Below, one piece after another: positions 2,042 to 18,365 of a stretch of DNA of 64,000 bases. Location of the stretch: positions 96,001-160,000 of IMG/VR virus record IMGVR_UViG_3300025108_000015; one strand, 5' to 3'. The notes under the pieces are model-generated. The model worked only from the letters and a program-made list of their open reading frames with translations. It ran no database searches and had not been told where the DNA came from. Positions within the stretch are counted from its first letter, which is position 1. Each line of letters starts with the position of its first letter. A program made the translations under genes and the position numbers. The stretch comes from a virus.

Positions 2042-2097
2042 TTAACAATTTCTTAACATACATCGTTTGGTAAATCCGACATTTATCCTTATATTTA
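2042..2097 (+). promoter_or_regulatory. Bacteroidota-type promoter with TTAACA-N5-TTAACA box (site 1)
   Basis: TTAACA 2042-47 and 2053-58; TTTG 2066-69; 20 nt; TATATTTA 2090-97. Confidence 0.75.
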
Positions 2098-2107
2098 CTA
2101 TGTAATA

Positions 2108-2413
2108 ATGAGAGAGATGATGAAAGATAGTTTTAAGTCAGTTACCGAAATGGCAAAGAGTGACATTTCAAAATATATAGGTGAGTTGAAGAAAGATGAA
2201 TCTACTGAGTTTAAGAACAACAAACATCTTCATAGGATTGGTCGTAAGTTTTCAAGTGGGAAATACAACTCACCACAATACGGACCAAACGATTGTTTTT
2301 TAGTTGGCGATACAATTTATCACGAGTCATATATCTACTCGACTGAAATGTTGTTCTCAAAAGAAACAAAGTGGTTAAACAAACAATTAGGAATTCACTC
2401 GGTAAATAAATAA
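2108..2413 (+). CDS. hypothetical protein
   Basis: ORF track; directly downstream of the promoter. Confidence 0.7.
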   Translation: MREMMKDSFKSVTEMAKSDISKYIGELKKDESTEFKNNKHLHRIGRKFSSGKYNSPQYGPNDCFLVGDTIYHESYIYSTEMLFSKETKWLNKQLGIHSVNK

Positions 2414-2416
2414 GTT

Positions 2417-2761
2417 ATGTCAGTATTTAAAAACACCAAACCAGTAAACTCGATTGAAGAGTTTGAGAATCAGTTAGTTAATCAATTGACTGCCCATTAT
2501 AAGGGTTGGTTTAAAAGTTATAATCCCACTTCGACTCCCGAAGTCAAAATCAACAAGGGGTCTAAGTTCTACAAGATTATCGTAGGAACTTCGGTATGGG
2601 GGTTCATCGCAAGAATCCCATTCGTTCACAAGGGTATCCAACTGAAGAAGGGTGACTTGATGAAACCTGCCGGTTGGTCGGCTGCTGCTAAACATTCTCG
2701 TGGTAATGTAATTGAAGGAACTGCAATGTACGGACCATATGGACCTATGTACCTAAAATAA
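2417..2761 (+). CDS. conserved phage hypothetical protein
   Basis: ORF track; KGDLMKPAGWSAAAKHSRGN motif seen in phage proteins; AAGTTATG start. Confidence 0.75.
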   Translation: MSVFKNTKPVNSIEEFENQLVNQLTAHYKGWFKSYNPTSTPEVKINKGSKFYKIIVGTSVWGFIARIPFVHKGIQLKKGDLMKPAGWSAAAKHSRGNVIEGTAMYGPYGPMYLK

Positions 2762-2767
2762 AAAGTT

Positions 2768-2947
2768 ATGAACAAATTAAAAAAGAAATTGTTAACAAAG
2801 TGGTTTATGGAATGGGTAAAGACTGAGACTGATGTCGAGACTCTACAAGCTACTACTATGTTTATTAGAAATCGTAAAGTAGAATTGGTAGGTGAGGAGA
2901 AACCACCGATTGGATTCCGTAGAAATAATTTGGAAATGTCAAAATAA
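2768..2947 (+). CDS. small hypothetical protein (59 aa)
   Basis: AAGTTATG start; MNKLKKKLLTKWFMEW...PPIGFRRNN. Confidence 0.55.
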   Translation: MNKLKKKLLTKWFMEWVKTETDVETLQATTMFIRNRKVELVGEEKPPIGFRRNNLEMSK

Positions 2948-2960
2948 TTTTGTATATTGT
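2929..2960 (+). promoter_or_regulatory. Bacteroidota-type promoter for thyA
   Basis: TTTG 2929-32; 20 nt; TATATTGT 2953-60. Confidence 0.65.
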
Positions 2961-2991
2961 AACAAGCTTTAACACTAAATACAATAACTAA

Positions 2992-3873
2992 ATGAGTATA
3001 GACACTACTTATAAAAACCTTTTGGTTGATATCATGTATGATGGTATCGAACGTGATGATAGAACTGGTACTGGTACTATATCTATATTTGGTGAACAAA
3101 TTAGATATTGTATGTGTAATGGATTTCCATTACTTACCACAAAGAAGATGGCTATCAAAACTATGATGACCGAATTGAAGTGGTTCTTAAAAGGAGATAC
3201 CAACATCAAGTACCTTGTTGACAACGGATGTAACATTTGGAATGGTGATGCTTATAAGAATTATAGAAATAAGTTTGAACCAACCCCATATCAATTTACT
3301 CCAGATACAATGGAAGAATTCATCAACAAAATCAAAACTGATGCTGAATTTGCAAATGAGAATGGTGAGTTAGGTCCTATCTATGGAAAGCAATGGAGAG
3401 ATTGGAATGGTAAAGACCAAATCCAAAATCTAATCAACGACCTTAAAACAAATCCTAATAGCAGACGACTAATGGTATCTGCTTGGAACGTAGGTGAGTT
3501 GGATGATGTGGTTCTACCACCTTGTCATTATGGATTCCAATGTTATGTATCAGAAGGTAAACTATCACTAATGTGGAATCAGAGAAGTGTGGATACATTC
3601 CTTGGTCTACCATTCAACATTGCATCATATGGTACATTACTCCTACTACTATGTGAGGAGACTGGATACAAGCCAGGTGATTTGATTGGTAATCTTGGGG
3701 ATGTACATTTATATAAAAATCATATAGATGCCGCTAAGACTTTAATTCAAAGAGATGATATGAGTATACCAAAGTTAAAGTTGAGTAATGTAGATATTCT
3801 AAATGGTGAGTTCGATTATGAAGTTATCGGATATGAATCACATCCACCTATTAAAGCTCCATTAAGTAATTAA
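2992..3873 (+). CDS. thyA: thymidylate synthase
   Basis: DDRTGTGT, catalytic LPPCH, QRSVDTFLGLPFNIASY, GDVHLYKNH. Confidence 0.97.
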   Translation: MSIDTTYKNLLVDIMYDGIERDDRTGTGTISIFGEQIRYCMCNGFPLLTTKKMAIKTMMTELKWFLKGDTNIKYLVDNGCNIWNGDAYKNYRNKFEPTPYQFTPDTMEEFINKIKTDAEFANENGELGPIYGKQWRDWNGKDQIQNLINDLKTNPNSRRLMVSAWNVGELDDVVLPPCHYGFQCYVSEGKLSLMWNQRSVDTFLGLPFNIASYGTLLLLLCEETGYKPGDLIGNLGDVHLYKNHIDAAKTLIQRDDMSIPKLKLSNVDILNGEFDYEVIGYESHPPIKAPLSN

Positions 3874-3884
3874 GTAAAATAGAT

Positions 3885-4043
3885 ATGACACACGAACAAG
3901 AAATTGAAGAAATCTTAATCGAGGCCCACGCTCATGGTATGAGGGATGAGGTAATGGAATGGGCTAAAAAGGAAATGGAAGCGAATCATAAATTAAGTAG
4001 AGTTGATGCATACCATCAAGGATACTTAGAATTTTGTAAATAA
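3885..4043 (+). CDS. small hypothetical protein (52 aa)
   Basis: MTHEQEIEEILIEAHAHGMR...; fills the gap after thyA. Confidence 0.6.
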   Translation: MTHEQEIEEILIEAHAHGMRDEVMEWAKKEMEANHKLSRVDAYHQGYLEFCK

Positions 4044-4044
4044 G

Positions 4045-4140
4045 ATGTTAGAATACGCAATATTTATCCCGATGATTACAATTGGTTTGATAGGAGGATA
4101 TCAAATGTATTTAGATTATAAAGATAGTTGTAATAACTAA
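4045..4140 (+). CDS. 31-aa membrane peptide
   Basis: MLEYAIFIPMITIGLIGGYQMYLDYKDSCNN; starts 1 nt after the previous stop. Confidence 0.5.
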   Translation: MLEYAIFIPMITIGLIGGYQMYLDYKDSCNN

Positions 4141-4150
4141 AGAAACGCAA

Positions 4151-4354
4151 ATGGAAGAATTTGGTTATAGAAAGTCTCTATTGGATAGAGATAACATTGA
4201 CTTGTTTATAGTAGATGATGAAAATCAAGAAATTATAGCCGAAGTGTTGTTGGAAGAAAACGGATGGGTTGATACACCAACGAACTCAGCTGAATTACCT
4301 AAACTACAACCTTGGCAAGAAGAGATACTGAATAAAGAAATAACTCATGACTAG
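4151..4354 (+). CDS. hypothetical protein
   Basis: ORF track; tight operon packing. Confidence 0.65.
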   Translation: MEEFGYRKSLLDRDNIDLFIVDDENQEIIAEVLLEENGWVDTPTNSAELPKLQPWQEEILNKEITHD

Positions 4355-4661
4355 CGAAAAGAAATACTATGCTGTTGTTAAAGTTCGTAAAGCTGAACTT
4401 ATAAGACCAACCGAGTCACAACTTATGTCGTATTATATGGACTATGGATATAATAATGTAGATGAGGTAGTAGATGATTATGGTAGTCTTGAGGAAGTGT
4501 TACGTGAATGGTACAATAATACGAATTACTTAAATGAGTTCACTGAACACCAACAACAATCTAACATATTTGGAATTGATTGGGATTCCGAATGGGAGCA
4601 GGTTGATATAATTGAAAAAGAGAATTGGGAGTCTATATACAATAGTACATATGTTTCTTAG
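4347..4661 (+). CDS. acidic hypothetical protein
   Basis: ORF track; overlaps its neighbours. Confidence 0.7.
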   Translation: MTSEKKYYAVVKVRKAELIRPTESQLMSYYMDYGYNNVDEVVDDYGSLEEVLREWYNNTNYLNEFTEHQQQSNIFGIDWDSEWEQVDIIEKENWESIYNSTYVS

Positions 4662-4857
4662 TTTATTAAAATGGTATGTCATAGTTGGTGTTATCAATTT
4701 AGCTATAATTGATTTCTTTACCAACAAAGTATCTGAGATACGAGGTACGGCTGGTTTGAGCAATCTTGAACGAGTGGTTATACTTTGTGGTTGGCCGGTT
4801 TTCTCTACCATATTCTGGTATAATTTTATAAAATCATTTACGAAAAAAGATGACTAA
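4651..4857 (+). CDS. small two-TM membrane protein
   Basis: Start moved to ATG 4651; two hydrophobic segments. Confidence 0.6.
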   Translation: MFLSLLKWYVIVGVINLAIIDFFTNKVSEIRGTAGLSNLERVVILCGWPVFSTIFWYNFIKSFTKKDD

Positions 4858-5389
4858 GACTTTTTTAGAAATAGGTTCATGTGATTTTGATACACTATCA
4901 TATATGTCGTTCCATGGTTGGCATGGTGTGGTCATGGAACCTATACCAAAATACTTTAACAATATAAAGTTCGAAGAAAACATACACTATGTAAATGCAG
5001 CAATATACCCAACTGATGGGTTGGCTACTATGTATATGGCTAGCGATGAGGTTATAGAAAAAGATTCAGACTTCAAAGGTATGAGTACCTTACTCGAAAA
5101 CTCTAATGTAAATCTTACTATACCGATTGAGGTTAGAACCATGTGCTTTGATACGTTGTTTAAATTAACCAATATTGATGAAATTGATTATCTAAAAATA
5201 GATACTGAGGGTTATGATGGTGAAGTACTACGTATGTTCCCATGGCACCGATGTAAACCTAAATACATAAAGTTTGAATCCGAACATCTTGTTTTAAATG
5301 GATGGGAAGCTGATATAATGGAGTTATTAAAAGTCAATGGGTATCACGTGGAGATTGATGAACGTAATTGGTACGCTATAAAACTTTAA
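4850..5389 (+). CDS. FkbM-family SAM-dependent methyltransferase
   Basis: FLEIGSCDF, VMEPIP, IDYLKIDTEGYD motifs. Confidence 0.9.
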   Translation: MTKTFLEIGSCDFDTLSYMSFHGWHGVVMEPIPKYFNNIKFEENIHYVNAAIYPTDGLATMYMASDEVIEKDSDFKGMSTLLENSNVNLTIPIEVRTMCFDTLFKLTNIDEIDYLKIDTEGYDGEVLRMFPWHRCKPKYIKFESEHLVLNGWEADIMELLKVNGYHVEIDERNWYAIKL

Positions 5390-5440
5390 CAATTTAGTAA
5401 CAATCTAATTTTGCAGTTTAAAATATTATTCGTATATTGG
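5386..5440 (+). promoter_or_regulatory. promoter with TTAACA-N5-GTAACA box (site 2)
   Basis: TTAACA 5386-91; GTAACA 5397-402; TTTG 5410-13; 19 nt; TATATTGG 5433-40. Confidence 0.7.
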
Positions 5441-5462
5441 TAGAGATAAACATTGAAGAAAT

Positions 5463-5792
5463 ATGAAATATAATAAAATCACAAATGAAAAATCAGCACT
5501 TGAATTAGTTGGTAACACTTCTCTAAAGGACCGATTGATTGGTTGGAACTACAAACAACTCGTTGCCACCTTTGGTGACCCAACATTCTCAAACGAAAGT
5601 GGTGATGGTAAGATTCAAAAAGAATGGGTATTCCAACGTACCTCAGATGGTGAAATATTTACTATCTACGATTGGAAGACGTATGATACCGAATACACTA
5701 CTACTATGAACTCTGATTGGAACGTTGGTGGTAAAACATATGCTGGTGATTTTGTCATTGATTTAATAACTGAACTTAAAAAGAAAAACTAA
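5463..5792 (+). CDS. hypothetical phage protein
   Basis: ORF track; FTIYDWK...WNVGG motif. Confidence 0.75.
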   Translation: MKYNKITNEKSALELVGNTSLKDRLIGWNYKQLVATFGDPTFSNESGDGKIQKEWVFQRTSDGEIFTIYDWKTYDTEYTTTMNSDWNVGGKTYAGDFVIDLITELKKKN

Positions 5793-5793
5793 T

Positions 5794-5955
5794 ATGAGTA
5801 AGTATTCATTTTATTCAATTGACGATTCGACTAAAGAATCGATTTATACGTGTGACGCATCCTCATTAGAAGAAGCACGAAGTGTATTTGCCAAAGGTAA
5901 GTTATTAGAATTAGAGGTTTTTGATAAATTGTACTCAGTTAAAAAGTGTGGATAG
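5794..5955 (+). CDS. small hypothetical protein (53 aa)
   Basis: MSKYSFYSIDDSTKESIYTC...; fills the gap exactly. Confidence 0.6.
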   Translation: MSKYSFYSIDDSTKESIYTCDASSLEEARSVFAKGKLLELEVFDKLYSVKKCG

Positions 5956-5956
5956 T

Positions 5957-6712
5957 ATGACGATAGATAAAGTCTATATAATTACAATTGACCAATCCGC
6001 TGATAATTATAATAGTATCTTAAAAAGATTGAACGCGTTATCCTTACCTAATCACACAACGTACCATATAATTGATGGTGTAAATGGTCGTGAAGAATTA
6101 TCTACCGATGAACTTAGAGATAGTCATGGTGTGAGTTTCTATAAAGATTGGGTTGCCAATTCCGAATCAAATGGTAATTCATTTTACAATAGAAATGTTA
6201 CTGTTGGTGAGGCTGGTGGTATGTGTTCTCATATAAGAGTATGGGAAGATGCATATAAGAACGGACATGAAACTATACTGATATTAGAAGATGACTTCGA
6301 GCCCATTACGGAGTTTCCATGGGAATCATTTGATGAACTCCAAGACTATGATTGGGATTTAGCTTTCTTATCAAGAACGTTAGTACCTAATATGGATGGG
6401 GTTAGTGATAGTAATGTGGGGTTGGCTAATTGGGTAAGTCCTGGTTATTCATATAACACACATTCATATGTAATTACACGTGAAGGACTACGTAAGATTA
6501 TAGAATATAATTTAGATACATTAAAAAATAATATAATAGTATCAGATGAATTCTTACCATCTACATACACCTATCACCCAAGACAAGATATGCGTACTAT
6601 GTTTAAACGTAATATGAACGCTATCGCACACAAGGTGAGTTTAGTTGGTCAAACTCGATTTGAATCAGCCGGCAACTCATTAACCGAACCAATTGAAGGT
6701 ATAGATTATTAA
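5957..6712 (+). CDS. glycosyltransferase family 25
   Basis: VYIITID, IIDGVNG, GEAGGMCSHIRVW, ILILEDDF; start moved to ATG 5957. Confidence 0.88.
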   Translation: MTIDKVYIITIDQSADNYNSILKRLNALSLPNHTTYHIIDGVNGREELSTDELRDSHGVSFYKDWVANSESNGNSFYNRNVTVGEAGGMCSHIRVWEDAYKNGHETILILEDDFEPITEFPWESFDELQDYDWDLAFLSRTLVPNMDGVSDSNVGLANWVSPGYSYNTHSYVITREGLRKIIEYNLDTLKNNIIVSDEFLPSTYTYHPRQDMRTMFKRNMNAIAHKVSLVGQTRFESAGNSLTEPIEGIDY

Positions 6713-6715
6713 ATT

Positions 6716-7033
6716 ATGAATGAACAAGAACTACACAAACTATTAGAGATTCAATACCTAAAAGGTCGTATTGATGAACTACATAAAGCAATACCAACTG
6801 TAACTGATTTGAGTCGTAGTCGTAAGTTAGACCAACGATTGGATAAGTACTACAACAAGTTAAAGTCAATTGATGAGATGGCATATCACTTGTATCAAGT
6901 AGAGCATACTAATCAACAAATTTCAAAAAAGAAATCTAAAGATTTTATGAAAGAACTTTTGGAAAAAGTGATACCACATATTAGTAATAGTGGGTTGGTG
7001 CATGAAATAGAAAATCAAATATCTAAATATTAA
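6716..7033 (+). CDS. hypothetical coiled-coil protein
   Basis: ORF track. Confidence 0.7.
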   Translation: MNEQELHKLLEIQYLKGRIDELHKAIPTVTDLSRSRKLDQRLDKYYNKLKSIDEMAYHLYQVEHTNQQISKKKSKDFMKELLEKVIPHISNSGLVHEIENQISKY

Positions 7034-7036
7034 GTT

Positions 7037-7411
7037 ATGTCTGAAAAGATTTATGTCCGTAAAGTAGAGACTTGGACAATCTCATCGGCAAGTGAACCTA
7101 TTGAGGTTAACGTAGAAGCGCTTCGTAAATGTGAACCCCCATACGAAGGAGACTCTGACCAAGAGTTAGTTAACTATCTTCAAAACAACGTATTCATGGA
7201 GTATGAGTTCTACGAAAACGAAACCAACATCGAGGCGTATGGTGAAGATGCTGTTTTTGACTTGGTTATGGAAGAGGCATATGTAGACAATGAGTTCTTT
7301 GATTCACGTAATAAGGGTGAAGAGTCGAGTCTTCAGATAGGTATTCCCGATGAGGAGTGGTCAAAGTATGGTGGTTTCCAACCATTAGCAAACGGAGAAT
7401 ACGAATATTAA
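7037..7411 (+). CDS. acidic hypothetical protein
   Basis: ORF track; AAGTTATG start. Confidence 0.7.
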   Translation: MSEKIYVRKVETWTISSASEPIEVNVEALRKCEPPYEGDSDQELVNYLQNNVFMEYEFYENETNIEAYGEDAVFDLVMEEAYVDNEFFDSRNKGEESSLQIGIPDEEWSKYGGFQPLANGEYEY

Positions 7412-7419
7412 ATAGGGTA

Positions 7420-7493
7420 GGACTCGTAGCTCAGCTGGATAGAGCATCTGCCTTCTAAGCAGACGGTCATAGGTTCGAATCCTATCGGGTTCA
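7420..7493 (+). tRNA. trnR: tRNA-Arg(UCU)
   Basis: Cloverleaf: GGACTCG/CGGGTTC acceptor, anticodon loop CTTCTAA, TTCGAAT T-loop; no encoded CCA. Confidence 0.95.
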
Positions 7494-7585
7494 CATAGAG
7501 TGGGTAAAAAGTTTAGTACACCTCTGCAGGGGTAAATGTAAGTTACTATTAATAGGACTACGTATCCTAACGACTACTCTTATTT

Positions 7586-7657
7586 GCTCGGTTCGTCTAT
7601 CGGTTAGGACCTATGGTTTTCATCCATAAAAGAGGGGTTCGATTCCCCTACCGAGTA
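7586..7657 (+). tRNA. trnE: tRNA-Glu(UUC)
   Basis: GCTCGGT/ACCGAGT acceptor; TATGG-TTTTCAT-CCATA; TTCGATT T-loop. Confidence 0.93.
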
Positions 7658-7661
7658 CAAT

Positions 7662-7732
7662 TGTCCGATGGTGTAATGGCAACACTTCTGTTTTTGGTAC
7701 AGACATTCAAGGTTCGAGTCCTTGTCGGATAA
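7662..7732 (+). tRNA. trnQ: tRNA-Gln(UUG)
   Basis: TGTCCGA/TCGGATA acceptor; TCTGT-TTTTGGT-ACAGA; TTCGAGT T-loop. Confidence 0.93.
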
Positions 7733-7785
7733 CTAAGTTTACTAAAGTTGAGTAGACTATTTATTTAAAATTAAATTACAAAGTC

Positions 7786-8043
7786 ATGAGTAAAATTTCA
7801 AGAAGATTATTCCAAGCATTGGAATCAAAATATACGGCAGAGATTATGGATGCAAGAGCACGTATCTCTATCTACTTTGAAAATCCGGTAGCTATCGGAG
7901 AACACCCACAACATACTGAAGAGATTGATTTGTTAGTATCACAGTTGACTGATGCTACTGATAAACTATCTACACTACGTGATAACTTTGGCCAAGAGTA
8001 TGGTGAGTTTGATGATAACGACAAACAAGTATTAAAGGGATAA
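7786..8043 (+). CDS. conserved phage hypothetical protein inside the tRNA cluster
   Basis: IYFENPVAIGEHPQ motif recognisable from T4-like phage proteins. Confidence 0.75.
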   Translation: MSKISRRLFQALESKYTAEIMDARARISIYFENPVAIGEHPQHTEEIDLLVSQLTDATDKLSTLRDNFGQEYGEFDDNDKQVLKG

Positions 8044-8052
8044 TATCCGCTA

Positions 8053-8137
8053 GGAAGATTGGCAGAGTGGTCGATTGCACTGGTCTTGAAAACCAGCGTA
8101 CAGCAATGTACCATAGGTTCGAATCCTATATCTTCCG
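8053..8137 (+). tRNA. trnS: tRNA-Ser(UGA)
   Basis: GGAAGAT/ATCTTCC acceptor; CTGGT-CTTGAAA-ACCAG; long variable arm; G73. Confidence 0.95.
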
Positions 8138-8166
8138 CAATTCGCAGTCAAGTATTTTATATTTTA

Positions 8167-8198
8167 TTTGTTTTATTCAAAAAATTGTTGTATATTGT
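8167..8198 (+). promoter_or_regulatory. promoter for the Gly tRNA unit
   Basis: TTTG 8167-70; 20 nt; TATATTGT 8191-98; first tRNA begins at 8211. Confidence 0.7.
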
Positions 8199-8210
8199 AT
8201 AAACAATAAC

Positions 8211-8282
8211 GCGGGAGAAGACTTAAAAGAAAGTCGTCTATCATCCAGATAGAAGGTGTTGGGGCAGTACCAACCTCCCGCT
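8211..8282 (+). tRNA. non-canonical tRNA-Gly(UCC)-like RNA, copy 1
   Basis: All four stems are perfect Watson-Crick; GCGGGAG/CTCCCGC plus U73; anticodon loop CATCCAG (A33); T-loop GGCAGTA; A8. Confidence 0.85.
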
Positions 8283-8350
8283 CAAAGAGAATGGTTAAAG
8301 ATTGGGATAAGGCCGCTCAATTTAAGCTACCGGTTATCATTCTCTATAAT

Positions 8351-8422
8351 GCGGAAGAGGAGTTAAGAGAAACTCGTTGAACATCCAGTTCAAAGATGGT
8401 GGGGCGGAGCCACCCTTCCGCT
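8351..8422 (+). tRNA. non-canonical tRNA-Gly(UCC)-like RNA, copy 2
   Basis: All four stems are perfect; GCGGAAG/CTTCCGC plus U73; same loop CATCCAG; T-loop GGCGGAG; A8. Confidence 0.85.
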
Positions 8423-8428
8423 CAATAA

Positions 8429-8501
8429 GCGAAAGTAGCTCAGCTGGTAGAGCATCACCTTGCCAAGGTGGGGGTCGCGAGTTCGAATCTCGTCTTTCGC
8501 T
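8429..8501 (+). tRNA. trnG: tRNA-Gly(GCC), canonical
   Basis: GCGAAAG/CTTTCGC plus U73; loop TTGCCAA; TTCGAAT T-loop; D-loop GG. Confidence 0.95.
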
Positions 8502-8513
8502 CTAAGATTCTTA

Positions 8514-8798
8514 ATGAACAAGAAAGAACACATATCTAAACTTTGGAATAAGAAAGACGTATCTGATATAATTCTGATGATGTATACTCTTATAGAAAAT
8601 ACTGATTGGGATGTAACTGAGAAGAAGAAGTCATACGCTGTATTGAAGGGTATAATTGCATACACTGATAGGGGTGATGACTTGTTATCACATCATAGAG
8701 ATTACTTACACAAAGAATGGAGTGATGCTTGGGAAGACCAAATAGATAACTCAGCAAGAGAAGAAATAAAAGAGTGGTTATTAGGACCAGCACTTTAA
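8514..8798 (+). CDS. hypothetical protein
   Basis: Start moved to ATG 8514 because the upstream part of the track ORF overlaps tRNA-Gly. Confidence 0.7.
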   Translation: MNKKEHISKLWNKKDVSDIILMMYTLIENTDWDVTEKKKSYAVLKGIIAYTDRGDDLLSHHRDYLHKEWSDAWEDQIDNSAREEIKEWLLGPAL

Positions 8799-8805
8799 TA
8801 AGAAT

Positions 8806-9240
8806 ATGATACATTGGTTTTATGGACAGCCAGGAAGTGGTAAGACCACACTGGCTAAAGCTATGATAAGTAACTCACCTCAATTGGAGTTTAAGAAACA
8901 CATACATATTGATGGTGATGAAATGAGAACTATCTTTAATAATAAAGATTACTCAAAAGAAGGTAGGTTGAATAACTTACGTAATGTTAATAATATAGCA
9001 AGATTCTTAGAATACAAAGGGTACGATGTATTCGTATCAGTTGTTGCTCCTTACAATGATATACGTGATGAGCTAAGGGATTTAGATATTAATTACTATT
9101 ACGTACATACAACTGAAACGAGGGGTCGTGAAGATTACTTTGCGTCTGATTTTGAATTCAACGACTCTGATATTAAAATTAACACAACAAACAAATCAGT
9201 TACTGAATCATTAAATGAAGTATTCACTATTCATAGGTAG
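8806..9240 (+). CDS. cysC: adenylylsulfate (APS) kinase-like protein, short
   Basis: P-loop GQPGSGKTT, IDGDEMR, RLNN, VSVVAPY. Confidence 0.82.
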   Translation: MIHWFYGQPGSGKTTLAKAMISNSPQLEFKKHIHIDGDEMRTIFNNKDYSKEGRLNNLRNVNNIARFLEYKGYDVFVSVVAPYNDIRDELRDLDINYYYVHTTETRGREDYFASDFEFNDSDIKINTTNKSVTESLNEVFTIHR

Positions 9241-9951: not shown

Positions 9952-9952
9952 A

Positions 9953-9974
9953 TGTTGATAACTTTGTGGATAAC
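9953..9974. promoter_or_regulatory. tandem DnaA-box-like pair
   Basis: TGTTGATAA 9953-61 and TGTGGATAA 9965-73 (the latter is the exact reverse complement of TTATCCACA). Confidence 0.55.
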
Positions 9975-9987
9975 TTAGTATTTATAC

Positions 9988-10458: not shown

Positions 10459-10475
10459 AATAGTTTCAGAAAACT

Positions 10476-10531
10476 TTAACAATTTCTTAACATTAGGAAC
10501 TTGTTTATATCGAATATATTCACTACTTTAG
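10476..10531 (+). promoter_or_regulatory. promoter with TTAACA box (site 3)
   Basis: TTAACA 10476-81 and 10487-92; CTTG 10500-03; 20 nt; TACTTTAG 10524-31. Confidence 0.75.
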
Positions 10532-10545
10532 TATAGTAATAAGAA

Positions 10546-12660
10546 ATGAGAAGTATGTCAAAAAATAATCTATCCTATTCATCGTTCTGGCTTGATGAGT
10601 CAATCTTCGATGATACTGAGATTTCTTCAGTAGAAAAGAAGTCAAATGACTTAATGAAGTTAATGTCTTACAAACGTAGTATCGCTAACTTCGTTTCCAT
10701 CGTAACTGGCAAGTCAATTCCTGTGACCTTTGATGGTCGTGGAGACCAATCCTATACTGATGGTACTGAGGTTGTTATATCGGCTAAGTTAGATGATAAA
10801 GAGTTCGACCCTGTTGTTGGTCTGGCTCTCCACGAGGGTTCTCACATCGCACTGACTGACTTTACAACACTTACGGAAATGAATCGTGGTTACCTACCTA
10901 CTACTATTGATAAAGAGTGGATGGCTAATCGTTACCAATGTGAGACTGATGAACTTAGTCACATAGTTAGTAACAATCTAAAATCACTTCTTAACTACGT
11001 TGAAGATAGACGTATTGATAATCACGTTTACACTACGGCGCCTGGCTATCGTGGTTACTACGAGTCTATGTACGATAAGTACTTTCACTCTAAGGTAATT
11101 GACAAAGGTCTTGAGTCTTCTGAGTATCGTACTGAGGATTGGGATTCTTATATGTTCCGTATCATCAACTTGACTAACGAGAATCGTGACCTCGATGCTC
11201 TTAAAGGTCTTCGTGAGATTTGGAATGTACTTAATCTACGTAACATATCACGACTAAAATCATCGTGGGAAGCTATGGATGTGGCTGGTGAGATTCTTAT
11301 GATTGTTGAAAAACAACTTGAGGTTGCCGGTAGTGATACTGGCTCATCGTCTAATGGTGATGGTGAACCACAAGGTGGTGATAGTGAAAATGGTGAGTCA
11401 CCTATGAGTGGTGACACTGAGAATAACCCCACTTCTGATGATGGTATGAGTTCTAATGGAAATGGTGAAACATCACCAAGTGACTCCGATGATGGTTCAG
11501 ATTCAGATGATGAGTCTACACAAGGTGGGTCTCCAAGTGGTGAAGGTAATCCTAATGGGGCTGGTGGTCAATATGAACCACTCTCAGACCGCCAAAAGAA
11601 AATGTTGGATAACGCTATTGAAAAACAAAAAGAGTTTCAAGAAGGTGATGTTAAGAAGAAGAAGATTTCCAAGTCTGACAAGAATAAGATTGACCAATTA
11701 GATAAGGCTGATATCAAGTCTGAGGTTACTGGTAAGGGATTCGCCAAAAGTAATTGGTCGGTTGGTTCCAATGGAGTTCAAACCTACATTATTAACAATT
11801 TAACCCGTGGGTTAATTGATTCGGATATGGTGGGTATGTTGACTAATTCGGAATACAGAACCAGTGGTAGTGATAAGTATATCAAGAAGGGTATTCAGTT
11901 GGGTACTATTCTTGGTAAGAAACTCAAGACTCGTAATGAGGAACGTGTCCTCACTACCCCACGAATGAAGAGTGGTAAGTTGAGTAGTCGTATGATTCAT
12001 GAGATTGGGTTTGGTAACTTCGATATCTTTGAACAAACTTTAATAAGTAACGCTACACCGATTGTATTACATATTTCAATTGACGCGAGTTCATCAATGA
12101 ATGGGTCAAAATGGAATAGTACACAAACCGCTGCTGTGGCTATTGCTAAGGCGGCTTCGATGACTGACAACATTGATGTTGTTATTTCGTACCGAGGTAT
12201 CTACTACTCACCAGGCAATTGGAGTAAGTGTCAACCACTAATGTTGATTGCATATGATAGTCGTAAAGATAAGTTCTCAAAGATTCAACAATTATTTAAA
12301 CACATTCAATCCGATGGTACTACTCCTGAGGGATTGTGTTATGAGGCTGTGATGAATGAGATTACTAAAACCAAATCAGGTGTGGACACATACCTAATAA
12401 ACTTCTCAGATGGTTTTCCTGGTTTTGATAACCAAGAGATTTCTTATGGGGGTCAAGCCGCCAGAAAACATACGGCAGAGCAAGTGTCTAAAATGAGAAA
12501 GGCTGGAGTTAAGGTGTTGTCATATTTCATATCCGAATGGGAGGGGCATGGTACTGATGGGTTTAAACAAATGTATGGAAACGATGCTGAATTTATTGAC
12601 ACCAATAATATGACCCAACTGGCTAAGACCTTAAATAAGAAGTTTGAAGTTGTTATTTAA
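10546..12660 (+). CDS. VWA (MIDAS) protein with N-terminal HExxH metallopeptidase-like domain, CobT-like partner of the AAA ATPase
   Basis: ALHEGSHI; YVEDRRID; Ser/Gly/Asp linker; SIDASSSM MIDAS; GTTPEG; NFSDGFP. Confidence 0.88.
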   Translation: MRSMSKNNLSYSSFWLDESIFDDTEISSVEKKSNDLMKLMSYKRSIANFVSIVTGKSIPVTFDGRGDQSYTDGTEVVISAKLDDKEFDPVVGLALHEGSHIALTDFTTLTEMNRGYLPTTIDKEWMANRYQCETDELSHIVSNNLKSLLNYVEDRRIDNHVYTTAPGYRGYYESMYDKYFHSKVIDKGLESSEYRTEDWDSYMFRIINLTNENRDLDALKGLREIWNVLNLRNISRLKSSWEAMDVAGEILMIVEKQLEVAGSDTGSSSNGDGEPQGGDSENGESPMSGDTENNPTSDDGMSSNGNGETSPSDSDDGSDSDDESTQGGSPSGEGNPNGAGGQYEPLSDRQKKMLDNAIEKQKEFQEGDVKKKKISKSDKNKIDQLDKADIKSEVTGKGFAKSNWSVGSNGVQTYIINNLTRGLIDSDMVGMLTNSEYRTSGSDKYIKKGIQLGTILGKKLKTRNEERVLTTPRMKSGKLSSRMIHEIGFGNFDIFEQTLISNATPIVLHISIDASSSMNGSKWNSTQTAAVAIAKAASMTDNIDVVISYRGIYYSPGNWSKCQPLMLIAYDSRKDKFSKIQQLFKHIQSDGTTPEGLCYEAVMNEITKTKSGVDTYLINFSDGFPGFDNQEISYGGQAARKHTAEQVSKMRKAGVKVLSYFISEWEGHGTDGFKQMYGNDAEFIDTNNMTQLAKTLNKKFEVVI

Positions 12661-12671
12661 TGTTGATAACT

Positions 12672-12727
12672 TTAACATAAACTTAACATTAAAAGTTTGG
12701 ATTTATAAAATAAATGTCGTACTTTAG
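12672..12727 (+). promoter_or_regulatory. promoter with TTAACA box (site 4)
   Basis: TTAACA 12672-77 and 12683-88; TTTG 12696-99; 20 nt; TACTTTAG 12720-27. Confidence 0.78.
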
Positions 12728-12746
12728 TACTGTAAGATTGAGAGAT

Positions 12747-12965
12747 ATGAGAAAGACAATTGAAGTAAAAAAAGTTTTAGATTACGTTAACAACCAACTC
12801 CAACGTACTGATGAGTATTGCGATGATAAGTTCAAAGCAGGTATGTGTACAATGATTGAACGAATGTTGTATGATACCAATCAGTATAATGGGTACACCC
12901 CATTGAATGATGTTAATGTAGGTGAGGTTGGTTATTACAATCGGTTTTATCATATGAAAAGTTAA
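12747..12965 (+). CDS. small hypothetical protein
   Basis: Start moved downstream of the promoter, to ATG 12747. Confidence 0.65.
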   Translation: MRKTIEVKKVLDYVNNQLQRTDEYCDDKFKAGMCTMIERMLYDTNQYNGYTPLNDVNVGEVGYYNRFYHMKS

Positions 12966-13017
12966 CATAAACTTAACATTAAAAGTTTGGAGTTGTGAAC
13001 CTAAATCACTATATTTA
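12962..13017 (+). promoter_or_regulatory. promoter with TTAACA box (site 5); first 30 nt identical to site 4
   Basis: TTAACA 12962-67 and 12973-78; TTTG 12986-89; 20 nt; TATATTTA 13010-17. Confidence 0.78.
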
Positions 13018-13045
13018 CAGAGTAATAATTGAGAAATATAAAAAT

Positions 13046-14311
13046 ATGAAGTCACAAAAATCAGTTTTCGGTAAGATTGTAGAAGTAGACAATCAACTAA
13101 TGTTTCAAGACTCCAATGGAGTTAACTTCCTTATTGAGGAATTAAACGAGAAGGGTTCTTCTCTTTACAAACGTGCCAGAGCGGCCGCCAACAATCCTGC
13201 TAAGTGGGGATGGAAGGTTCGTGTCGTTGGTCGATTGTCCGATGGTGAGTTAGGACACACACGTGTTCCATCATCAAAGGTTGAAGATAACCTTGAGCCT
13301 GTTGGTAACTTCAACAATCCAAATGGTGGGTTGTTATCATTGGAGTATAAACCAAAATCACAATCAACACCAATTTCAGTTGAGATGTCAGATGATGTCC
13401 TCAAGTTTATTCACGAGGAGTCTGAAGGTCTTAAACCTCAGATGTTGTTTATGAATCCTTTGAAGTGGAAACTTCTTATTCGTAACATTATCCGTGGTAA
13501 GAATATTATGATGACTGGTCCAGCCGGTTGTGGTAAGACTATGGCTGCTAAGGCTGCTGCCAATTCAATTGAAGGTTACAACACCTTTGTAATTAACTTG
13601 GGAGCTACCCAAGACCCACGAACCACATTGATTGGGAACACTCAGTTTGAAACCAAGAAAGGTACGGTGTTTAACCCATCACCATTTGTCAAGGCGATAT
13701 CCACTCCAAATACCGTGGTTGTTCTTGATGAGTTGACTCGGGCCCATCCTGAGGCTCACAACATTCTAATGACCGTACTTGACCAAGGTCAACGTTACTT
13801 ACGTCTCGATGAGGCTGCTGACGCTCCTGTTGTTAAGGTCGCCGATGGTGTTTCGTTCATCGCCTCTGCTAACATTGGTAATGAGTACACCGCTACACGT
13901 TCTCTTGACCGGGCAATTCTTGACCGATTCATTCCAATTGAAATGGATACTTTGACTCGTGATGAGGAAACTCAACTACTTCAAATGATGTACCCATCGG
14001 TTGATATTGAGATTCTAAATAATGTTGCTGAGGTGACTTCCATGACTCGTAACGAGTTGATGTCTGAGTCTCCAAAGTTATCTAACGCACTATCTACACG
14101 GACCGCAGTTGAGATTGGGTCTCTACTCTACGATGGGTTCTCACTAAGTGAGGCTGCAGAGTTGGCTGTTTATCCAATGTTCGACCAAAGTGGTGGGGCT
14201 GAATCTGAAAGAGTTTATATGAAACAATATGTTCAGAAGTTCTTAGGTGAGATTCCTCAAGATGATAACTTGTTCAATGTTGAAACCGAAGATATTTCTA
14301 ATCCGTTTTAA
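13046..14311 (+). CDS. MoxR/CobS-like AAA+ ATPase
   Basis: Walker A GPAGCGKT; Walker B VVLDELTRA; LDRF arginine finger; start ATG 13046. Confidence 0.92.
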   Translation: MKSQKSVFGKIVEVDNQLMFQDSNGVNFLIEELNEKGSSLYKRARAAANNPAKWGWKVRVVGRLSDGELGHTRVPSSKVEDNLEPVGNFNNPNGGLLSLEYKPKSQSTPISVEMSDDVLKFIHEESEGLKPQMLFMNPLKWKLLIRNIIRGKNIMMTGPAGCGKTMAAKAAANSIEGYNTFVINLGATQDPRTTLIGNTQFETKKGTVFNPSPFVKAISTPNTVVVLDELTRAHPEAHNILMTVLDQGQRYLRLDEAADAPVVKVADGVSFIASANIGNEYTATRSLDRAILDRFIPIEMDTLTRDEETQLLQMMYPSVDIEILNNVAEVTSMTRNELMSESPKLSNALSTRTAVEIGSLLYDGFSLSEAAELAVYPMFDQSGGAESERVYMKQYVQKFLGEIPQDDNLFNVETEDISNPF

Positions 14312-14313
14312 TC

Positions 14314-14727
14314 ATGGGATATAATCCGTTCAGATGGTATACTAAAGGAAAGAAAAAGCGTTTACCCATTAACGCTCACTTGTTTGACAAGATTAAGAAT
14401 GGGGACTTCAATTATTCTCACTATTACACGGAAGCGGAGAGTGCTCGTAAAGAGTACTCTTCCATCTTCCAAAAGACAATGGATGAGACCGGCGACTACG
14501 CTATGGCTAGAACGGCTGCTAAGATGAAAAACGTAAAGGCCTTGAAACTTGACGAAGAAGCGTTTAAGGATGAACAAAAGTTATTACGTGATTTGAAGAT
14601 TGAATTAAGAGAGAAGTTTGGATTTTGTTTGTGGGATGAGATGATGAGTAAAAAAGCAATGGACCTTGAGGAGTTGTATAATTACTATTGTCACGAACAA
14701 ATGAGACGAAATGGTTTGGATGTTTAA
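14314..14727 (+). CDS. hypothetical protein
   Basis: ORF track. Confidence 0.7.
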   Translation: MGYNPFRWYTKGKKKRLPINAHLFDKIKNGDFNYSHYYTEAESARKEYSSIFQKTMDETGDYAMARTAAKMKNVKALKLDEEAFKDEQKLLRDLKIELREKFGFCLWDEMMSKKAMDLEELYNYYCHEQMRRNGLDV

Positions 14728-14746
14728 TATTTTTTTTGTATATTTG
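14715..14746 (+). promoter_or_regulatory. Bacteroidota consensus promoter
   Basis: TTTG 14715-18; 20 nt; TATATTTG 14739-46 (perfect TAnnTTTG). Confidence 0.75.
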
Positions 14747-14751
14747 TATAT

Positions 14752-15078
14752 ATGATTTACGACCCTAATAATGAATTAACCGAAGAAGAGATAACTCAAT
14801 TGAGTGAAGATGCATTCTTCGAGTATTTAGATACCAAAGCAGAGTATCTTAAAACAAAGACACGACCATTGGGTCAGTATCATACTAAGATGTATGCAGC
14901 ATTAAGTAAAGGTGATAAGTTGACAACTAAGGAGTTGAAGAGAGCAAAAGAAATTGGTCAGTTAGGTGACAATGAAGTTAACGAAAAGATTGCTGAGGCC
15001 GCTTCTAAATTGGGTGGCGACCCTAAGTATAACAACGTTGATAACGTAAAGACTAATAGGTCAGAGTGGTTTGATTAG
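14752..15078 (+). CDS. hypothetical protein
   Basis: ORF track. Confidence 0.7.
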   Translation: MIYDPNNELTEEEITQLSEDAFFEYLDTKAEYLKTKTRPLGQYHTKMYAALSKGDKLTTKELKRAKEIGQLGDNEVNEKIAEAASKLGGDPKYNNVDNVKTNRSEWFD

Positions 15079-15253
15079 TATGGGATTTAATAAAAAAACA
15101 TTACCAAGTAAGGAAAAACTTCAGAGTATGGTTTATGACTATGGAACTGAAGAGGTTGTACTTAGATATAAAAACGCAGATATGTTAATGGGTAATTCCG
15201 ATGCTATGGCGTATTTACAAACTATAATAAGAGAGTATGAATTGGGAAGATAA
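15071..15253 (+). CDS. small hypothetical protein
   Basis: ORF track; the true start may be the second Met. Confidence 0.6.
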   Translation: MISMGFNKKTLPSKEKLQSMVYDYGTEEVVLRYKNADMLMGNSDAMAYLQTIIREYELGR

Positions 15254-15866
15254 AGACGAGTTCGAAGATATGTTTTCCGAAGTTAGAAAGCAACTATATA
15301 AAGATGATTTTTTTCATTTAATGAATATTGAACACATTGAGAAGTTCCTTGAGTATTTAAGAGATGACTTGTCCAATTCCAATGACGATGACTTATTGTC
15401 CGATGTTCTTATGAAAACTTTTAGGACATATGAAATGTGGGAGACTGATAACGCATTATCTGAATTATCAGACAAGGGGTTGGTACGGATGGTATTACGT
15501 GCGGATGGTAAGTTGGCTTACGAAGCAACTGACGATGGTGTAGAACTCAATGACTATATTCAATCTATGGCAAGTCATATGGATTATAGAGAAGATAATC
15601 AAACAGACTATATTATGGATTTAAAATATTCACCTGAAATATTTAGAGTAACTGGTGCTGATGATGCATTAAAATTTGTTGACCATGGAGATAACTTTGA
15701 GTTCATTGTTATCCCCGCTGGAAGACAACACGATGGTGAAGAGTTCGTTGAATTCTATCATACAATTTTCACTCATTATAATGATCCTGGCCCTAATGGT
15801 CAGTATGAGTTAGTAGACGAGGTTCAGCTCTACGATATGTTAAACAATAATTATAATCAATATTAA
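15237..15866 (+). CDS. acidic hypothetical protein
   Basis: ORF track. Confidence 0.75.
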   Translation: MNWEDKDEFEDMFSEVRKQLYKDDFFHLMNIEHIEKFLEYLRDDLSNSNDDDLLSDVLMKTFRTYEMWETDNALSELSDKGLVRMVLRADGKLAYEATDDGVELNDYIQSMASHMDYREDNQTDYIMDLKYSPEIFRVTGADDALKFVDHGDNFEFIVIPAGRQHDGEEFVEFYHTIFTHYNDPGPNGQYELVDEVQLYDMLNNNYNQY

Positions 15867-15879
15867 ATAAAAGTAAATT

Positions 15880-16080
15880 ATGAGTTATTACATTGCAAAA
15901 GTAAAGGTTCATCATGAAGATGACAAAGGAAGAGTTAAAAAAGTAACTGAACAATATTTAGTTCAAGCCATATCTGTAACGGATGCTGAAACTAAGGTTG
16001 TTGCTGAATTCGAAGGAAGTAATTTAGAGTTCGAGGTAACTGCTGTCGTTGACACTAAAATTATCAGTGTTATACAATGA
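15880..16080 (+). CDS. DUF4494-like protein (Bacteroidota-associated family)
   Basis: YIAKVK...KKVTEQYLVQAISVTDAETKV pattern. Confidence 0.7.
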   Translation: MSYYIAKVKVHHEDDKGRVKKVTEQYLVQAISVTDAETKVVAEFEGSNLEFEVTAVVDTKIISVIQ

Positions 16081-16289
16081 TATACTCAGTAGGTGATAAT
16101 GTAGTAGTAAACGTGAACGGCACTAACCGAGTTGGTGCCGTCACGATTGCTAAAAAGCTTAAAAAGGGGTGGGTCTATTCAGTACATTTGGAAAATGGAA
16201 AGACGCTTGAATCATGTTCGGTTAACAAAGAGTTGACAACGTATCACATAAGTCGTACACTTACAAAGATATTTAATAATGGTAATTGA
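16077..16289 (+). CDS. small SH3/KOW-like hypothetical protein
   Basis: YSVGDNVVV...GAV...VYSVHLE beta pattern. Confidence 0.55.
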   Translation: MIYSVGDNVVVNVNGTNRVGAVTIAKKLKKGWVYSVHLENGKTLESCSVNKELTTYHISRTLTKIFNNGN

Positions 16290-16575
16290 TGTTAAGAAAT
16301 TTAAATCTTTAAAACGTAAGGTCTTAAAGAAGTACCCATCCGCTAAAACTGAAATGACCACTGATGGTCGTTTTACAATATCAAATGGAAATGGTGGTTC
16401 TATTGGTTTAGAGTTTATGATACCACCACAAGACAGTGTTAGTATGGCGTGGTTTTGGGCAGCAGAGTGTGTTAGGTATAAGCAAAATATTAATAGAACA
16501 CACCCCATACGAAGTGCTATGAGTTTTAACGAGAAAAAGTTTAATAGAGTTTCTCGTAGAAATCGCAGAAAGTGA
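16279..16575 (+). CDS. basic hypothetical protein
   Basis: ORF track. Confidence 0.7.
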   Translation: MVIDVKKFKSLKRKVLKKYPSAKTEMTTDGRFTISNGNGGSIGLEFMIPPQDSVSMAWFWAAECVRYKQNINRTHPIRSAMSFNEKKFNRVSRRNRRK

Positions 16576-16626
16576 TTTTATTAAAGTTGTGAAAACTATT
16601 TATAGTAAATAAACAATTTCTATATA

Positions 16627-16926
16627 ATGAAAAAGCACAACAATAAACAACGTGGGTTTGTAAACCAATCTTATGGAGTTACAGAAAGTGAGGTCGTTCG
16701 ACAGGCCAAAGCTTATGGTAAAAATTATAGTTCAATAGACTTCGCTTTTAATCCTGATTTAACAAAGGAAGATTTTCCTATAAAAAATCGTATGGAGCTT
16801 GGGTCGTTAATAGTGGGTAACCATGAAATTGAATTAACAAAGTCGGAAGCAACGAAGATTATTCAAACATTGGAAACTGCTATATCTTCGACTCAACAAC
16901 GATATCGGTTAGGTATTTTAAACTAA
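16627..16926 (+). CDS. hypothetical protein
   Basis: ORF track; TATTTATA at 16597-604 upstream. Confidence 0.7.
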   Translation: MKKHNNKQRGFVNQSYGVTESEVVRQAKAYGKNYSSIDFAFNPDLTKEDFPIKNRMELGSLIVGNHEIELTKSEATKIIQTLETAISSTQQRYRLGILN

Positions 16927-16935
16927 AATTTAAAA

Positions 16936-17304
16936 GTGGGTGATGATGTAATTTCAAGGATACTAACTTCAACGTTGGATACCACTGACCATGGAGATGT
17001 TTCTGAATTAGCATTATTTTTAGATGATGGGGTCTCTACAATCTTAACGGAACGTAAAGACCCTTACTTCACCATAGCTAAGCAAAAGATAAAACAACTC
17101 ATTACCTTTGCGGACGAATCCCCCTCAGTAGATTACACTAACAAAATGATTAAGAGTCTACTTAGATTGGAGTCTTACATAGCGGACCAAACAATGGATT
17201 TGGTATTTGTTGAAATTTGTTTAGAGTGTGCTAGGGATAAAAATATAATAACACGAGAGGCTTTAATTTTATTAAATGAGATACATAACTCAATTAATAG
17301 ATAG
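16936..17304 (+). CDS. hypothetical protein
   Basis: ORF track; GTG start. Confidence 0.6.
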   Translation: MGDDVISRILTSTLDTTDHGDVSELALFLDDGVSTILTERKDPYFTIAKQKIKQLITFADESPSVDYTNKMIKSLLRLESYIADQTMDLVFVEICLECARDKNIITREALILLNEIHNSINR

Positions 17305-17336
17305 TTATAGTAAACGGAAGGGATATTGGTGTTATT

Positions 17337-17696
17337 ATGGAAAATTATTTTGGAGAATGGCATTGGGATGAATCTGAATATAACTTCTTTATGTCACTTG
17401 GGGTTGTAGCCAAATTAGAATACGTATACGATTACTTTAATATATCGGATGACGTTCTTTTTGAGTTTGAGGTTGACGATGAATTTGACATTGACGATGA
17501 ACATACATCAGCTACGTCTATTGATGTAGTTATTACTGATACACATTTTCTTTTAACGTGTAATGACTATGATATAGCTATGAAAACAATAAGCACGTTT
17601 CAAATGGATGGTTATATATTGACGTTTGATAAGAAAAAAGGTGACACTTATTTCTATAAATGTATAGGAATGTCACAACCACTATCGGTAAACTGA
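17337..17696 (+). CDS. acidic hypothetical protein
   Basis: ORF track. Confidence 0.7.
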   Translation: MENYFGEWHWDESEYNFFMSLGVVAKLEYVYDYFNISDDVLFEFEVDDEFDIDDEHTSATSIDVVITDTHFLLTCNDYDIAMKTISTFQMDGYILTFDKKKGDTYFYKCIGMSQPLSVN

Positions 17697-17776
17697 CATC
17701 GTGTCATGAAATAATCAATTGGTCTACATATTGTTCTATTGTTAATGTATTAATAAATTAATAAAAGGAATATAAT

Positions 17777-18121
17777 ATGACGTTTAATAGACTAAACACA
17801 ATGGTCTCCGACTTTATGTTGGGGGAGTGGGGGAATGAAGCAGGCCTTAATTCAAATACTGCTTTTTTAAAAGATGATGTACTAACTATGGAATTCGCAG
17901 TGCCTGGATTGTCCAATGAAGACATCGATGTTATTGTTGCTGACCGAATGATTGAAATCAAAGCTGAAAAGGAACATCGTAAATTGGAAAAGAGATACAA
18001 GATACATGATGCGTTTGATATAAATAAAACATCTGCTGTTGCTAAGGATGGGTTACTTATTGTATCAATACCTAAGTATGAGGACCGTAAGGCTAAATCG
18101 ATAAAAGTAAAAGTTAAATAG
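17777..18121 (+). CDS. small heat-shock protein (Hsp20)
   Basis: EFAVPGLSNEDIDV, AVAKDGLLIVSIPK alpha-crystallin motifs. Confidence 0.92.
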   Translation: MTFNRLNTMVSDFMLGEWGNEAGLNSNTAFLKDDVLTMEFAVPGLSNEDIDVIVADRMIEIKAEKEHRKLEKRYKIHDAFDINKTSAVAKDGLLIVSIPKYEDRKAKSIKVKVK

Positions 18122-18318
18122 TGTATAGATTCTTCAGGTCGCAAAAAGTTACGTTTAATGATAAGTTGTTCATCGTGGTTAAAAAAATTAAAATTGACCG
18201 AAATCCGATAATTGATGTATGGAAGGAACACCTTAACGCTGATACTGTTTTAAAAAGAGATGGATACTATTGGTTTTGTGAGGAAATTCCTTCAATTGAC
18301 TTTGAAGAATTAACATAA
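18121..18318 (+). CDS. small hypothetical protein
   Basis: ORF track, coupled to hsp20. Confidence 0.65.
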   Translation: MYRFFRSQKVTFNDKLFIVVKKIKIDRNPIIDVWKEHLNADTVLKRDGYYWFCEEIPSIDFEELT

Positions 18319-18365
18319 ATTTAACATAGGGGGCTTGTATAGTCCCCTTTTTTTTTGTACATTTA
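18310..18365 (+). promoter_or_regulatory. promoter with TTAACA box (site 6) for uvsE
   Basis: TTAACA 18310-15 and 18321-26; CTTG 18334-37; 20 nt; TACATTTA 18358-65. Confidence 0.72.
18328..18356 (+). terminator. intrinsic terminator overlapping promoter site 6
   Basis: AGGGGGC-ttgtata-GTCCCCT followed by a T run. Confidence 0.75.

Follow-up and report, generated by a model that had tools for sequence, protein, structure and literature searches.

A putative Bacteroidota Pho box at a constant distance from the core of about half of the host-type promoters in a predicted T4-like marine phage

In the cyanophage P-SSM2, pstS and phoA have reportedly been named as genes under the control of the host PhoBR system. 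For cyanophages it is established that the PhoBR system of the host controls phage genes. In S-PM2d, several phage promoters are bound by the host PhoB, the one of the DNA polymerase gene among them; the bound promoters are not limited to phosphate-acquisition genes, and the predicted Pho boxes of this phage are degenerate and unreliable (PMC10976474). Here we describe a promoter module, the direct repeat TTAACA-N5-TTAACA (hereafter the box), in a window of 64,000 nucleotides (nt) comprising bases 96,095-160,094 of one 172,976-bp virus record (IMGVR_UViG_3300025108_000015; G+C 35.6%), and in the remainder of this phage genome. We consider it fairly likely that the phage has copied the Pho box of its host, in its consensus form, onto 15 of about 28 host-sigma-A-type promoters, and that the host PhoB raises their transcription. 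Judged from the sequence, the early gene expression of the phage would then probably be tuned to a large extent by the host phosphate sensor PhoB. By analogy, the control of cyanophage genes by host PhoB would be the closest precedent, since both cases concern a T4-like marine phage with putative host Pho boxes and here, too, a DNA polymerase operon stands behind a box. The principle of Pho control is already known from the cyanophages, where PhoB binding was tested. New are the other host phylum, with another box sequence, the consensus operators at one fixed position on 15 complete promoters (cyanophage boxes being degenerate, variably placed and poorly predictive), the presence on about half of the host-type promoters, and the conservation within a large phage family.

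The Pho box of Escherichia coli has a CTGTCAT-type consensus and replaces the -35 element; a dimer of the OmpR family occupies two direct repeats with an 11-bp period, and the regulon includes pstS, the phosphate porin and phoB. The box described here likewise consists of two direct repeats with an 11-bp period, and in Bacteroidota it is found with a comparable gene set (PstS-type, phosphate porin and some PhoB-like genes), but it has TTAACA as consensus and, in the phage, precedes the -33 element. In Bacillus subtilis, according to work of the Hulett laboratory, PhoP activates promoters whose coding strand carries a core binding region of TT(A/T/C)ACA repeats spaced at an 11-bp period. The phage box has the same hexamer, the same period and the same coding-strand orientation, and host Bacteroidota promoters carry four phased repeats; however, PhoP uses four repeats over approximately -60 to -20, whereas the phage has a single dimer site (two repeats) upstream of an intact -33 element. 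In the literature searched, we found no published definition of a Pho-box consensus for Bacteroidetes, nor of Pho boxes in phages of Flavobacteria.

Nearly all genes of the phage are carried on the + strand, and upstream of these + strand genes we found about 28 promoters with a core of the Bacteroidota form, TTTG-N19/20-TAnnTT(T/A)(G/A). This promoter type, together with a family-B DNA polymerase and collinear relatives, fits a T4-like marine phage of Flavobacteria-type hosts, as far as can be predicted from sequence features. Among 50,697 deposited phage genomes, blastn found nothing relevant either to window positions 10400-14400 or to one promoter cassette. When one mismatch was tolerated, the box matched eight times in the window, compared to 1.67 expected matches, and none out of 100 shuffled sequences reached eight. 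Across the whole genome, 11 exact boxes are located on the + strand and none on the - strand, where 0.058 are expected per strand (Poisson P ~6e-22), so that the frequency of the motif departs clearly from the random expectation against which the initial annotation had proposed to weigh it. Allowing up to one mismatch, the genome contains 18 matches (shuffle mean 2.2, maximum 7), 15 of which are promoters of identical geometry. These 15 box promoters, located from genome position 18,646 to 114,404, use the coding (+) strand without exception, and in each of them the direct repeats recur every 11 bp and point the same way with respect to the gene. In 15 out of 15, the distance from the start of the box to the TA of the -7 element is 47-48 nt, with a gap of 6-7 nt between box and TTTG and a spacer of 19-20 nt. 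The box thereby occupies approximately -59 to -43, with its repeats at -59/-48, and the -33 TTTG is intact one helical turn downstream. Boxes are present on about half of the host-type promoters (15 of ~28); nine of the 15 lie at 80-109 kb among small open reading frames (ORFs), and none in the structural-gene part of the genome.

Six box promoters in the window had been proposed beforehand (2042, 5386, 10476, 12672, 12962 and 18310), and all six are real and on the + strand, with exactly 7 nt after the box, followed by (T/C)TTG, 19-20 nt and TAnnTT. They are listed here together with the promoters that have the core only:

2042..2097, + strand: box promoter 1, with the box at 2042-2058, TTTG at 2066-2069 and the -7 element from 2090; drives small ORFs at 2108-2947.
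5386..5440, + strand: box promoter 2, with TTTG at 5410 and the -7 element from 5433; its second half-site, at 5397, is GTAACA, as had been claimed; drives a 109-amino-acid (aa) ORF, a glycosyltransferase-like ORF (5921-6712) and the genes after these.
10476..10531, + strand: box promoter 3; drives the 704-aa CobT-like protein (10546-12660); box kept at the ortholog in a 266-kb relative of the phage.
12672..12727, + strand: box promoter 4; drives a small ORF ending at 12965.
12962..13017, + strand: box promoter 5; drives an ORF that ends at 14311 and encodes the AAA_5/MoxR (CobS-like) ATPase; box kept at the ortholog of the same relative.
18310..18365, + strand: box promoter 6; drives the UV endonuclease UvdE, whose ORF ends at 19314.
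2929..2960, + strand: core-only comparator promoter, TTTG-N20-TAnnTT without box, upstream of a 293-aa gene.
8167, 10206, 14715, 20485, 38547 and 55978: further core-only promoters, without box.

The two sites at 12672 and 12962 have 30 identical nt in common, in agreement with the initial annotation. The six promoters that it had named for comparison (2929, 8167, 10206, 14715, 20485 and 38547) indeed have the same TTTG-N19/20-TAnnTT core and no box, and because box-less promoters carry the same core, its view of the box as a separate module added to a common core promoter holds. Two further matches in the window, at 16222 (+) and 28898-28914 (-), fall within ORFs, have no core promoter next to them and are probably due to chance.

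At the -33 element, an inverted repeat, TTTGG-N5/6-(T)CCAAA, opens many promoters throughout the genome irrespective of the box (e.g., window positions 2929-2945 and 38547-38563). Furthermore, the leader after the -7 element, GTAATAAtGAGAGAt directly before the ATG, is conserved within the phage and across related phages; it is found at window positions 2096-2112, 10532-10548 and 13018-13040, at other box promoters, and also at loci L011-L117. As the host group largely ignores Shine-Dalgarno sites, this leader may act as a signal for translation or for the stability of the RNA.

The 22-mer form of the box, TTAACAATTTCTTAACATTAAA, served as query for a scan of 185,579 bacterial and archaeal genomes and of IMG/VR. 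In bacteria it was found in 39 stretches, in intergenic position, mostly from Bacteroidota (Flavobacteriales, Bacteroidales, Sphingobacteriaceae, Cytophagales and Cyclobacteriaceae), Ignavibacteria and other members of the FCB group. Pfam analysis of ten downstream proteins identified six Porin_O_P (phosphate-selective porin; one just below the curated cut-off), two PstS-type PBP_like_2 and one PHO4+PhoU protein, and N-terminal likeness added four PHO4-type and two porin genes, resulting in phosphate-uptake genes downstream of the 22-mer in 14 out of 39 stretches. Another five of the 39 precede orthologues of one secreted 371-aa protein that has no Pfam match. Additionally, the degenerate 17-mer, in which any spacer sequence is allowed, occurs three to eleven times in each of five Bacteroidota genomes (reversed control pattern, zero to seven), and its sites add another two PHO4 genes, a ComEA-like protein and two TonB-dependent receptors to the list. 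An initial reading of the box as a phage-specific temporal promoter or a UP-like element was dropped, the bacterial matches being at phosphate genes.

Two groups of bacterial matches show a different neighborhood. In four related small contigs of metagenome-assembled genomes (L132, L135, L150 and L152, labelled Gammaproteobacteria, Saccharibacteria and Moraniibacteriota) the 22-mer is located ~60 nt upstream of the DnaA-box-like sequence TGTGGATAA, a non-phosphate context, and at three orthologous loci of Ignavibacteriaceae (L120, L137 and L147) it lies ~580 nt upstream of an RnpA-like ORF, with no phosphate gene identified nearby.

The position of the box at -59 to -43 is that of a UP element, it is rich in A and T, and the core promoter behind it is complete, features that would also suit a constitutive upstream enhancer (a UP-element-like contact of the RNA polymerase alpha subunit, or a bend site) acting whatever the phosphate status, its likeness to Pho sites being incidental or historical. 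We regard this as quite unlikely, because neither the two C residues nor the arrangement as 11-bp direct repeats varies. Such constancy is what a winged-helix dimer with sequence specificity typically requires, whereas contacts to A-tracts in the minor groove do not. Moreover, among the 39 bacterial matches at least 14 precede phosphate-uptake genes and none of those with an identified neighbor precedes a gene for rRNA or a ribosomal protein, the latter being a weak test as it covers the exact 22-mer only.

Starting from the host genes instead, as the initial annotation had suggested for the phosphate genes of Flavobacteriia, led to the same sequence. In Flavobacteriaceae, TTAAC(A)-N5/6-TTAAC repeats precede approximately ten out of 14 Porin_O_P genes, and the 300 nt before PstS-type genes contain a box, two mismatches being tolerated, in 13 out of 30 cases, where about one would be expected from the background at the same loci (0.037 boxes per 300 nt). 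In addition, PhoB-like regulators are present in five out of five genomes, and in three of the five the best PhoB-like regulator gene is preceded by tandem TTAAC repeats, which would fit an autoregulated phoB. Since the forward scan, the reverse tests and the repeats at PhoB-like genes agree, they identify TTAACA-N5-TTAACA(-TTAAA) as the putative Pho box of Bacteroidota, the predicted operator of a PhoB-type regulator of the host. The earlier proposal that a Pho-box-like module is read by a host response regulator, possibly PhoB, thus gains sequence support on its host branch, as the 22-mer precedes host phosphate-uptake genes.

The geometry of the host promoters can be compared where a TAnnTTTG is placeable. 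Here the repeats are found at approximately -71/-60/-49/-38 (four in tandem) or at -69/-58/-38/-27, and in one PHO4 promoter at -60/-49. Because the phage repeats are at -59/-48, the phage box is predicted to lie on the same helical face as the repeats of host Pho promoters, and in place of the proximal repeat of the hosts (~-38) the phage promoters have a normal -33 TTTG. Taken as a whole, this arrangement differs from a classical PhoB promoter and appears to be a full promoter with a single site for a PhoB dimer set directly in front of it.

The genes behind the boxes include an operon that has the family-B DNA polymerase as its last gene, a long operon that begins with a PD-(D/E)XK nuclease, the 704-aa CobT-like protein, the AAA_5/MoxR (CobS-like) ATPase, UvdE, a HAD/polynucleotide-kinase-like protein, a glycosyltransferase-like protein and many small unassigned ORFs at 80-115 kb. 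As regards the targets proposed earlier, the assignments of the ATPase and of UvdE are clear; what had been called a VWA protein is the 704-aa protein, for which we obtained a weak CobT-like PHROG match only. For most box-driven genes, Pfam and PHROGs gave no function.

The scan of the full genome and of its relatives, which had also been proposed, yielded the 15 promoters described above and 107 stretches of IMG/VR with the 22-mer. Almost all of these stretches come from phages related to this one, and the 22-mer is nearly always followed by TTTGG-N20-TAnnTT and the conserved leader. The proteins of most of these contigs are just 30-70% identical to those of the phage, and since the exact 22-mer persists at this protein identity, conservation of this non-coding sequence greatly exceeds that of the genes. 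Relatives with a complete or near-complete genome carry 9-29 exact boxes on one strand (control pattern, 0-1), and unrelated phage contigs one to four boxes each. The relative of 266 kb has 29 boxes and shares 82 proteins with the phage in collinear order, which rules out that this record represents an independent, unrelated lineage. Comparing the two, six out of seven box promoters with an orthologous downstream gene keep the box (DNA polymerase operon, CobT-like, CobS-like, UvdE and two unassigned genes), and seven out of eight core-only promoters remain without box (Fisher p = 0.01, jointly). Because presence and absence are conserved gene by gene, the box is best read from these alignments as the mark of a conserved gene set, i.e., a predicted regulon, and not as a random scatter of cassettes. 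Metatranscriptome X20 contained 5% of the sampled phage words, as contigs from relatives at 85-95% likeness, and is not informative on transcription starts or expression.

Under the proposed mechanism, the host would be phosphate-limited already or become so during infection, and a dimer of phosphorylated PhoB would bind the box upstream of the -33 element, where PhoB as an upstream activator would raise transcription from the box promoters. These promoters would probably also fire at a basal level without PhoB because their core elements are complete. We infer the binding of PhoB, the activation and the phosphate dependence of the box promoters from the motif itself, its geometry, its identity with upstream sites of host Pho genes and its conservation.

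Several observations weigh against control by PhoB. Between the end of the phage box and an intact TTTG there are 6-7 nt, so the box does not overlap or replace the -33 element as the sites of classical PhoB-dependent promoters do, and the core elements of box promoters appear no weaker than those of core-only promoters; for these two reasons PhoB may be dispensable for the box promoters. Furthermore, the phage phoH gene (genome positions 160615-161277, ~520 nt past the window end; Pfam E = 2e-52) has no Pho box. On the host side, the PhoB-like regulators of all five genomes score below the TIGR02154 equivalog cut-off, some bacterial matches are not beside phosphate genes (RnpA-like and DnaA-box contexts, a dehydrogenase), and the host is known as Bacteroidota-type only. 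In addition, nearly all box-rich phages belong to one family, which leaves room for a phage factor specific to this family.

Such a factor would be a DNA-binding protein encoded by the phages and common to the family, which reads the box by using or mimicking the Pho-box sequence and thereby defines a temporal class (e.g., middle genes) independent of host phosphate. The confinement of heavy box use (9-29 per genome) to one T4-like phage family, with one to four boxes in unrelated contigs, would suit this explanation, as would the 82 proteins in common with the 266-kb relative, many of which are of unassigned function. However, the identity with the sites at host phosphate genes, including the spacer and the trailing TTAAA, is unexplained unless the specificity of PhoB was copied, and the phasing agrees with that of host Pho promoters. 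Moreover, an OmpR/PhoB-type winged-helix domain (Trans_reg_C, PF00486) was detected neither in the phage nor in five other box-bearing phages, and MotA and AsiA (PF09158 and PF09010) were not found in the phage. The initial annotation had named a host regulator or a phage activator; owing to the lack of these three factors in the searches, the host part is favored and the phage-encoded part disfavored, and we hold a family-specific phage protein to be unlikely.

In T4, the middle promoters have a MotA box that replaces the -35 element at about -30, and they require the phage proteins MotA and AsiA. The promoters described here resemble them in that an extra box marks a subset of promoters as a separate regulatory class, and differ from them in their intact -33 element and in that MotA and AsiA were not found in the phage. 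A more far-reaching and rather unlikely extension of PhoB control would be that the Pho-box promoters represent the middle mode of T4-like phages that lack MotA and AsiA. Replication would then drain phosphate and switch on PhoR-PhoB, and phosphorylated PhoB would fire a second wave of transcription comprising the DNA polymerase operon, the nuclease, the CobS/CobT-like pair, UvdE and takeover genes, so that the starvation alarm of the host would act as infection timer and as gauge of the phosphate supply.

The density of the boxes raises the question of whether they act mainly as a sink. With 15 sites per 173 kb in the phage, compared to three to eleven per 2-4 Mb in the hosts, and with phage boxes of consensus grade where those of hosts often have mismatches, thousands of consensus sites after replication might titrate phosphorylated PhoB off the host Pho regulon, or might recruit it for repression. 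Neither the fixed distance and orientation to the core promoter nor the gene-by-gene conservation would be needed for a sink, however, and steric repression is unlikely because the box does not overlap the core elements. This makes titration or repression as the main role very unlikely in our estimation.

Besides their putative regulatory role, the box cassettes are near-identical repeats between small genes, the leader sequence included, and one of them contains a terminator-like element:

18328..18348, + strand: terminator-like hairpin with T-run, within box promoter 6, after its box and before its -7 element; the loop contains the -33 CTTG.

This hairpin is the strongest terminator-like hairpin at window positions 1-20000 and forms a composite of terminator and promoter; among the six window sites, it is the only clear one. 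The same design of box, hairpin, T-run and -7 element recurs in cassettes of some relatives, e.g., in several of the 266-kb record. At the level of contigs, related strains show breaks at the cassettes 10471/10476 and 12682/12701, and marine metagenome contigs of related strains join 10494 to 12717, i.e., two box promoters, with a different 25-26 nt core promoter between them and without the 704-aa CobT-like gene. Near-identical repeats between small genes, and contigs that join or break at them, suggest that the cassettes probably also serve as recombination points for the shuffling of genes.

In this respect the cassettes resemble the PeSLs of T4-type phages, composite promoter/terminator cassettes (PMC2839356, PMC4122927). 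Both are repeated, near-identical early-promoter cassettes among small variable genes; the stem-loop terminator in one of the phage cassettes and the homology breakpoints of related strains at the cassettes, seen at the level of contigs, may be further likenesses. Differences are the clear hairpin at just one of the six window sites and the operator, since PeSLs are not described in the consulted parts of these two papers as bearing the operator of a host regulator. One could ask whether PeSL-like spread and homogenization by recombination are the sole cause of the sequence identity, leaving the box without regulatory meaning. The near-identity of the cassettes down to the leader, their position between small ORFs, the embedded terminator in one of them and the related-strain contigs that break or join there would all be expected in such a case. 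Core-only promoters of the same genome lack the box, however; the half-sites are fixed while spacers and core sequences vary, and the identical sequence is found at host phosphate genes, all of which renders mere cassette spread extremely improbable.

If control by host PhoB is true, a widespread marine phage family with Flavobacteria-type hosts couples a large part of its early program, beyond genes for nutrient uptake, to the phosphate sensor of its host. Flavobacteria are major degraders of the carbon from algal blooms, and how infections proceed and how large bursts are at sea would in that case depend directly on the supply of phosphate. In addition, the putative Bacteroidota Pho-box consensus TTAACA-N5-TTAACA-TTAAA is testable and would permit the prediction of Pho regulons across the phylum, and the combination of an operator with a complete promoter would offer a ready-made phosphate-responsive promoter part for the genetics of Bacteroidota.

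Finally, the core-only promoter at 8167 is located within a cluster of five tRNA genes (window positions 7420-8502), which comprises Arg-tct, Glu-ttc, Gln-ttg, Ser-tga and Gly-gcc.

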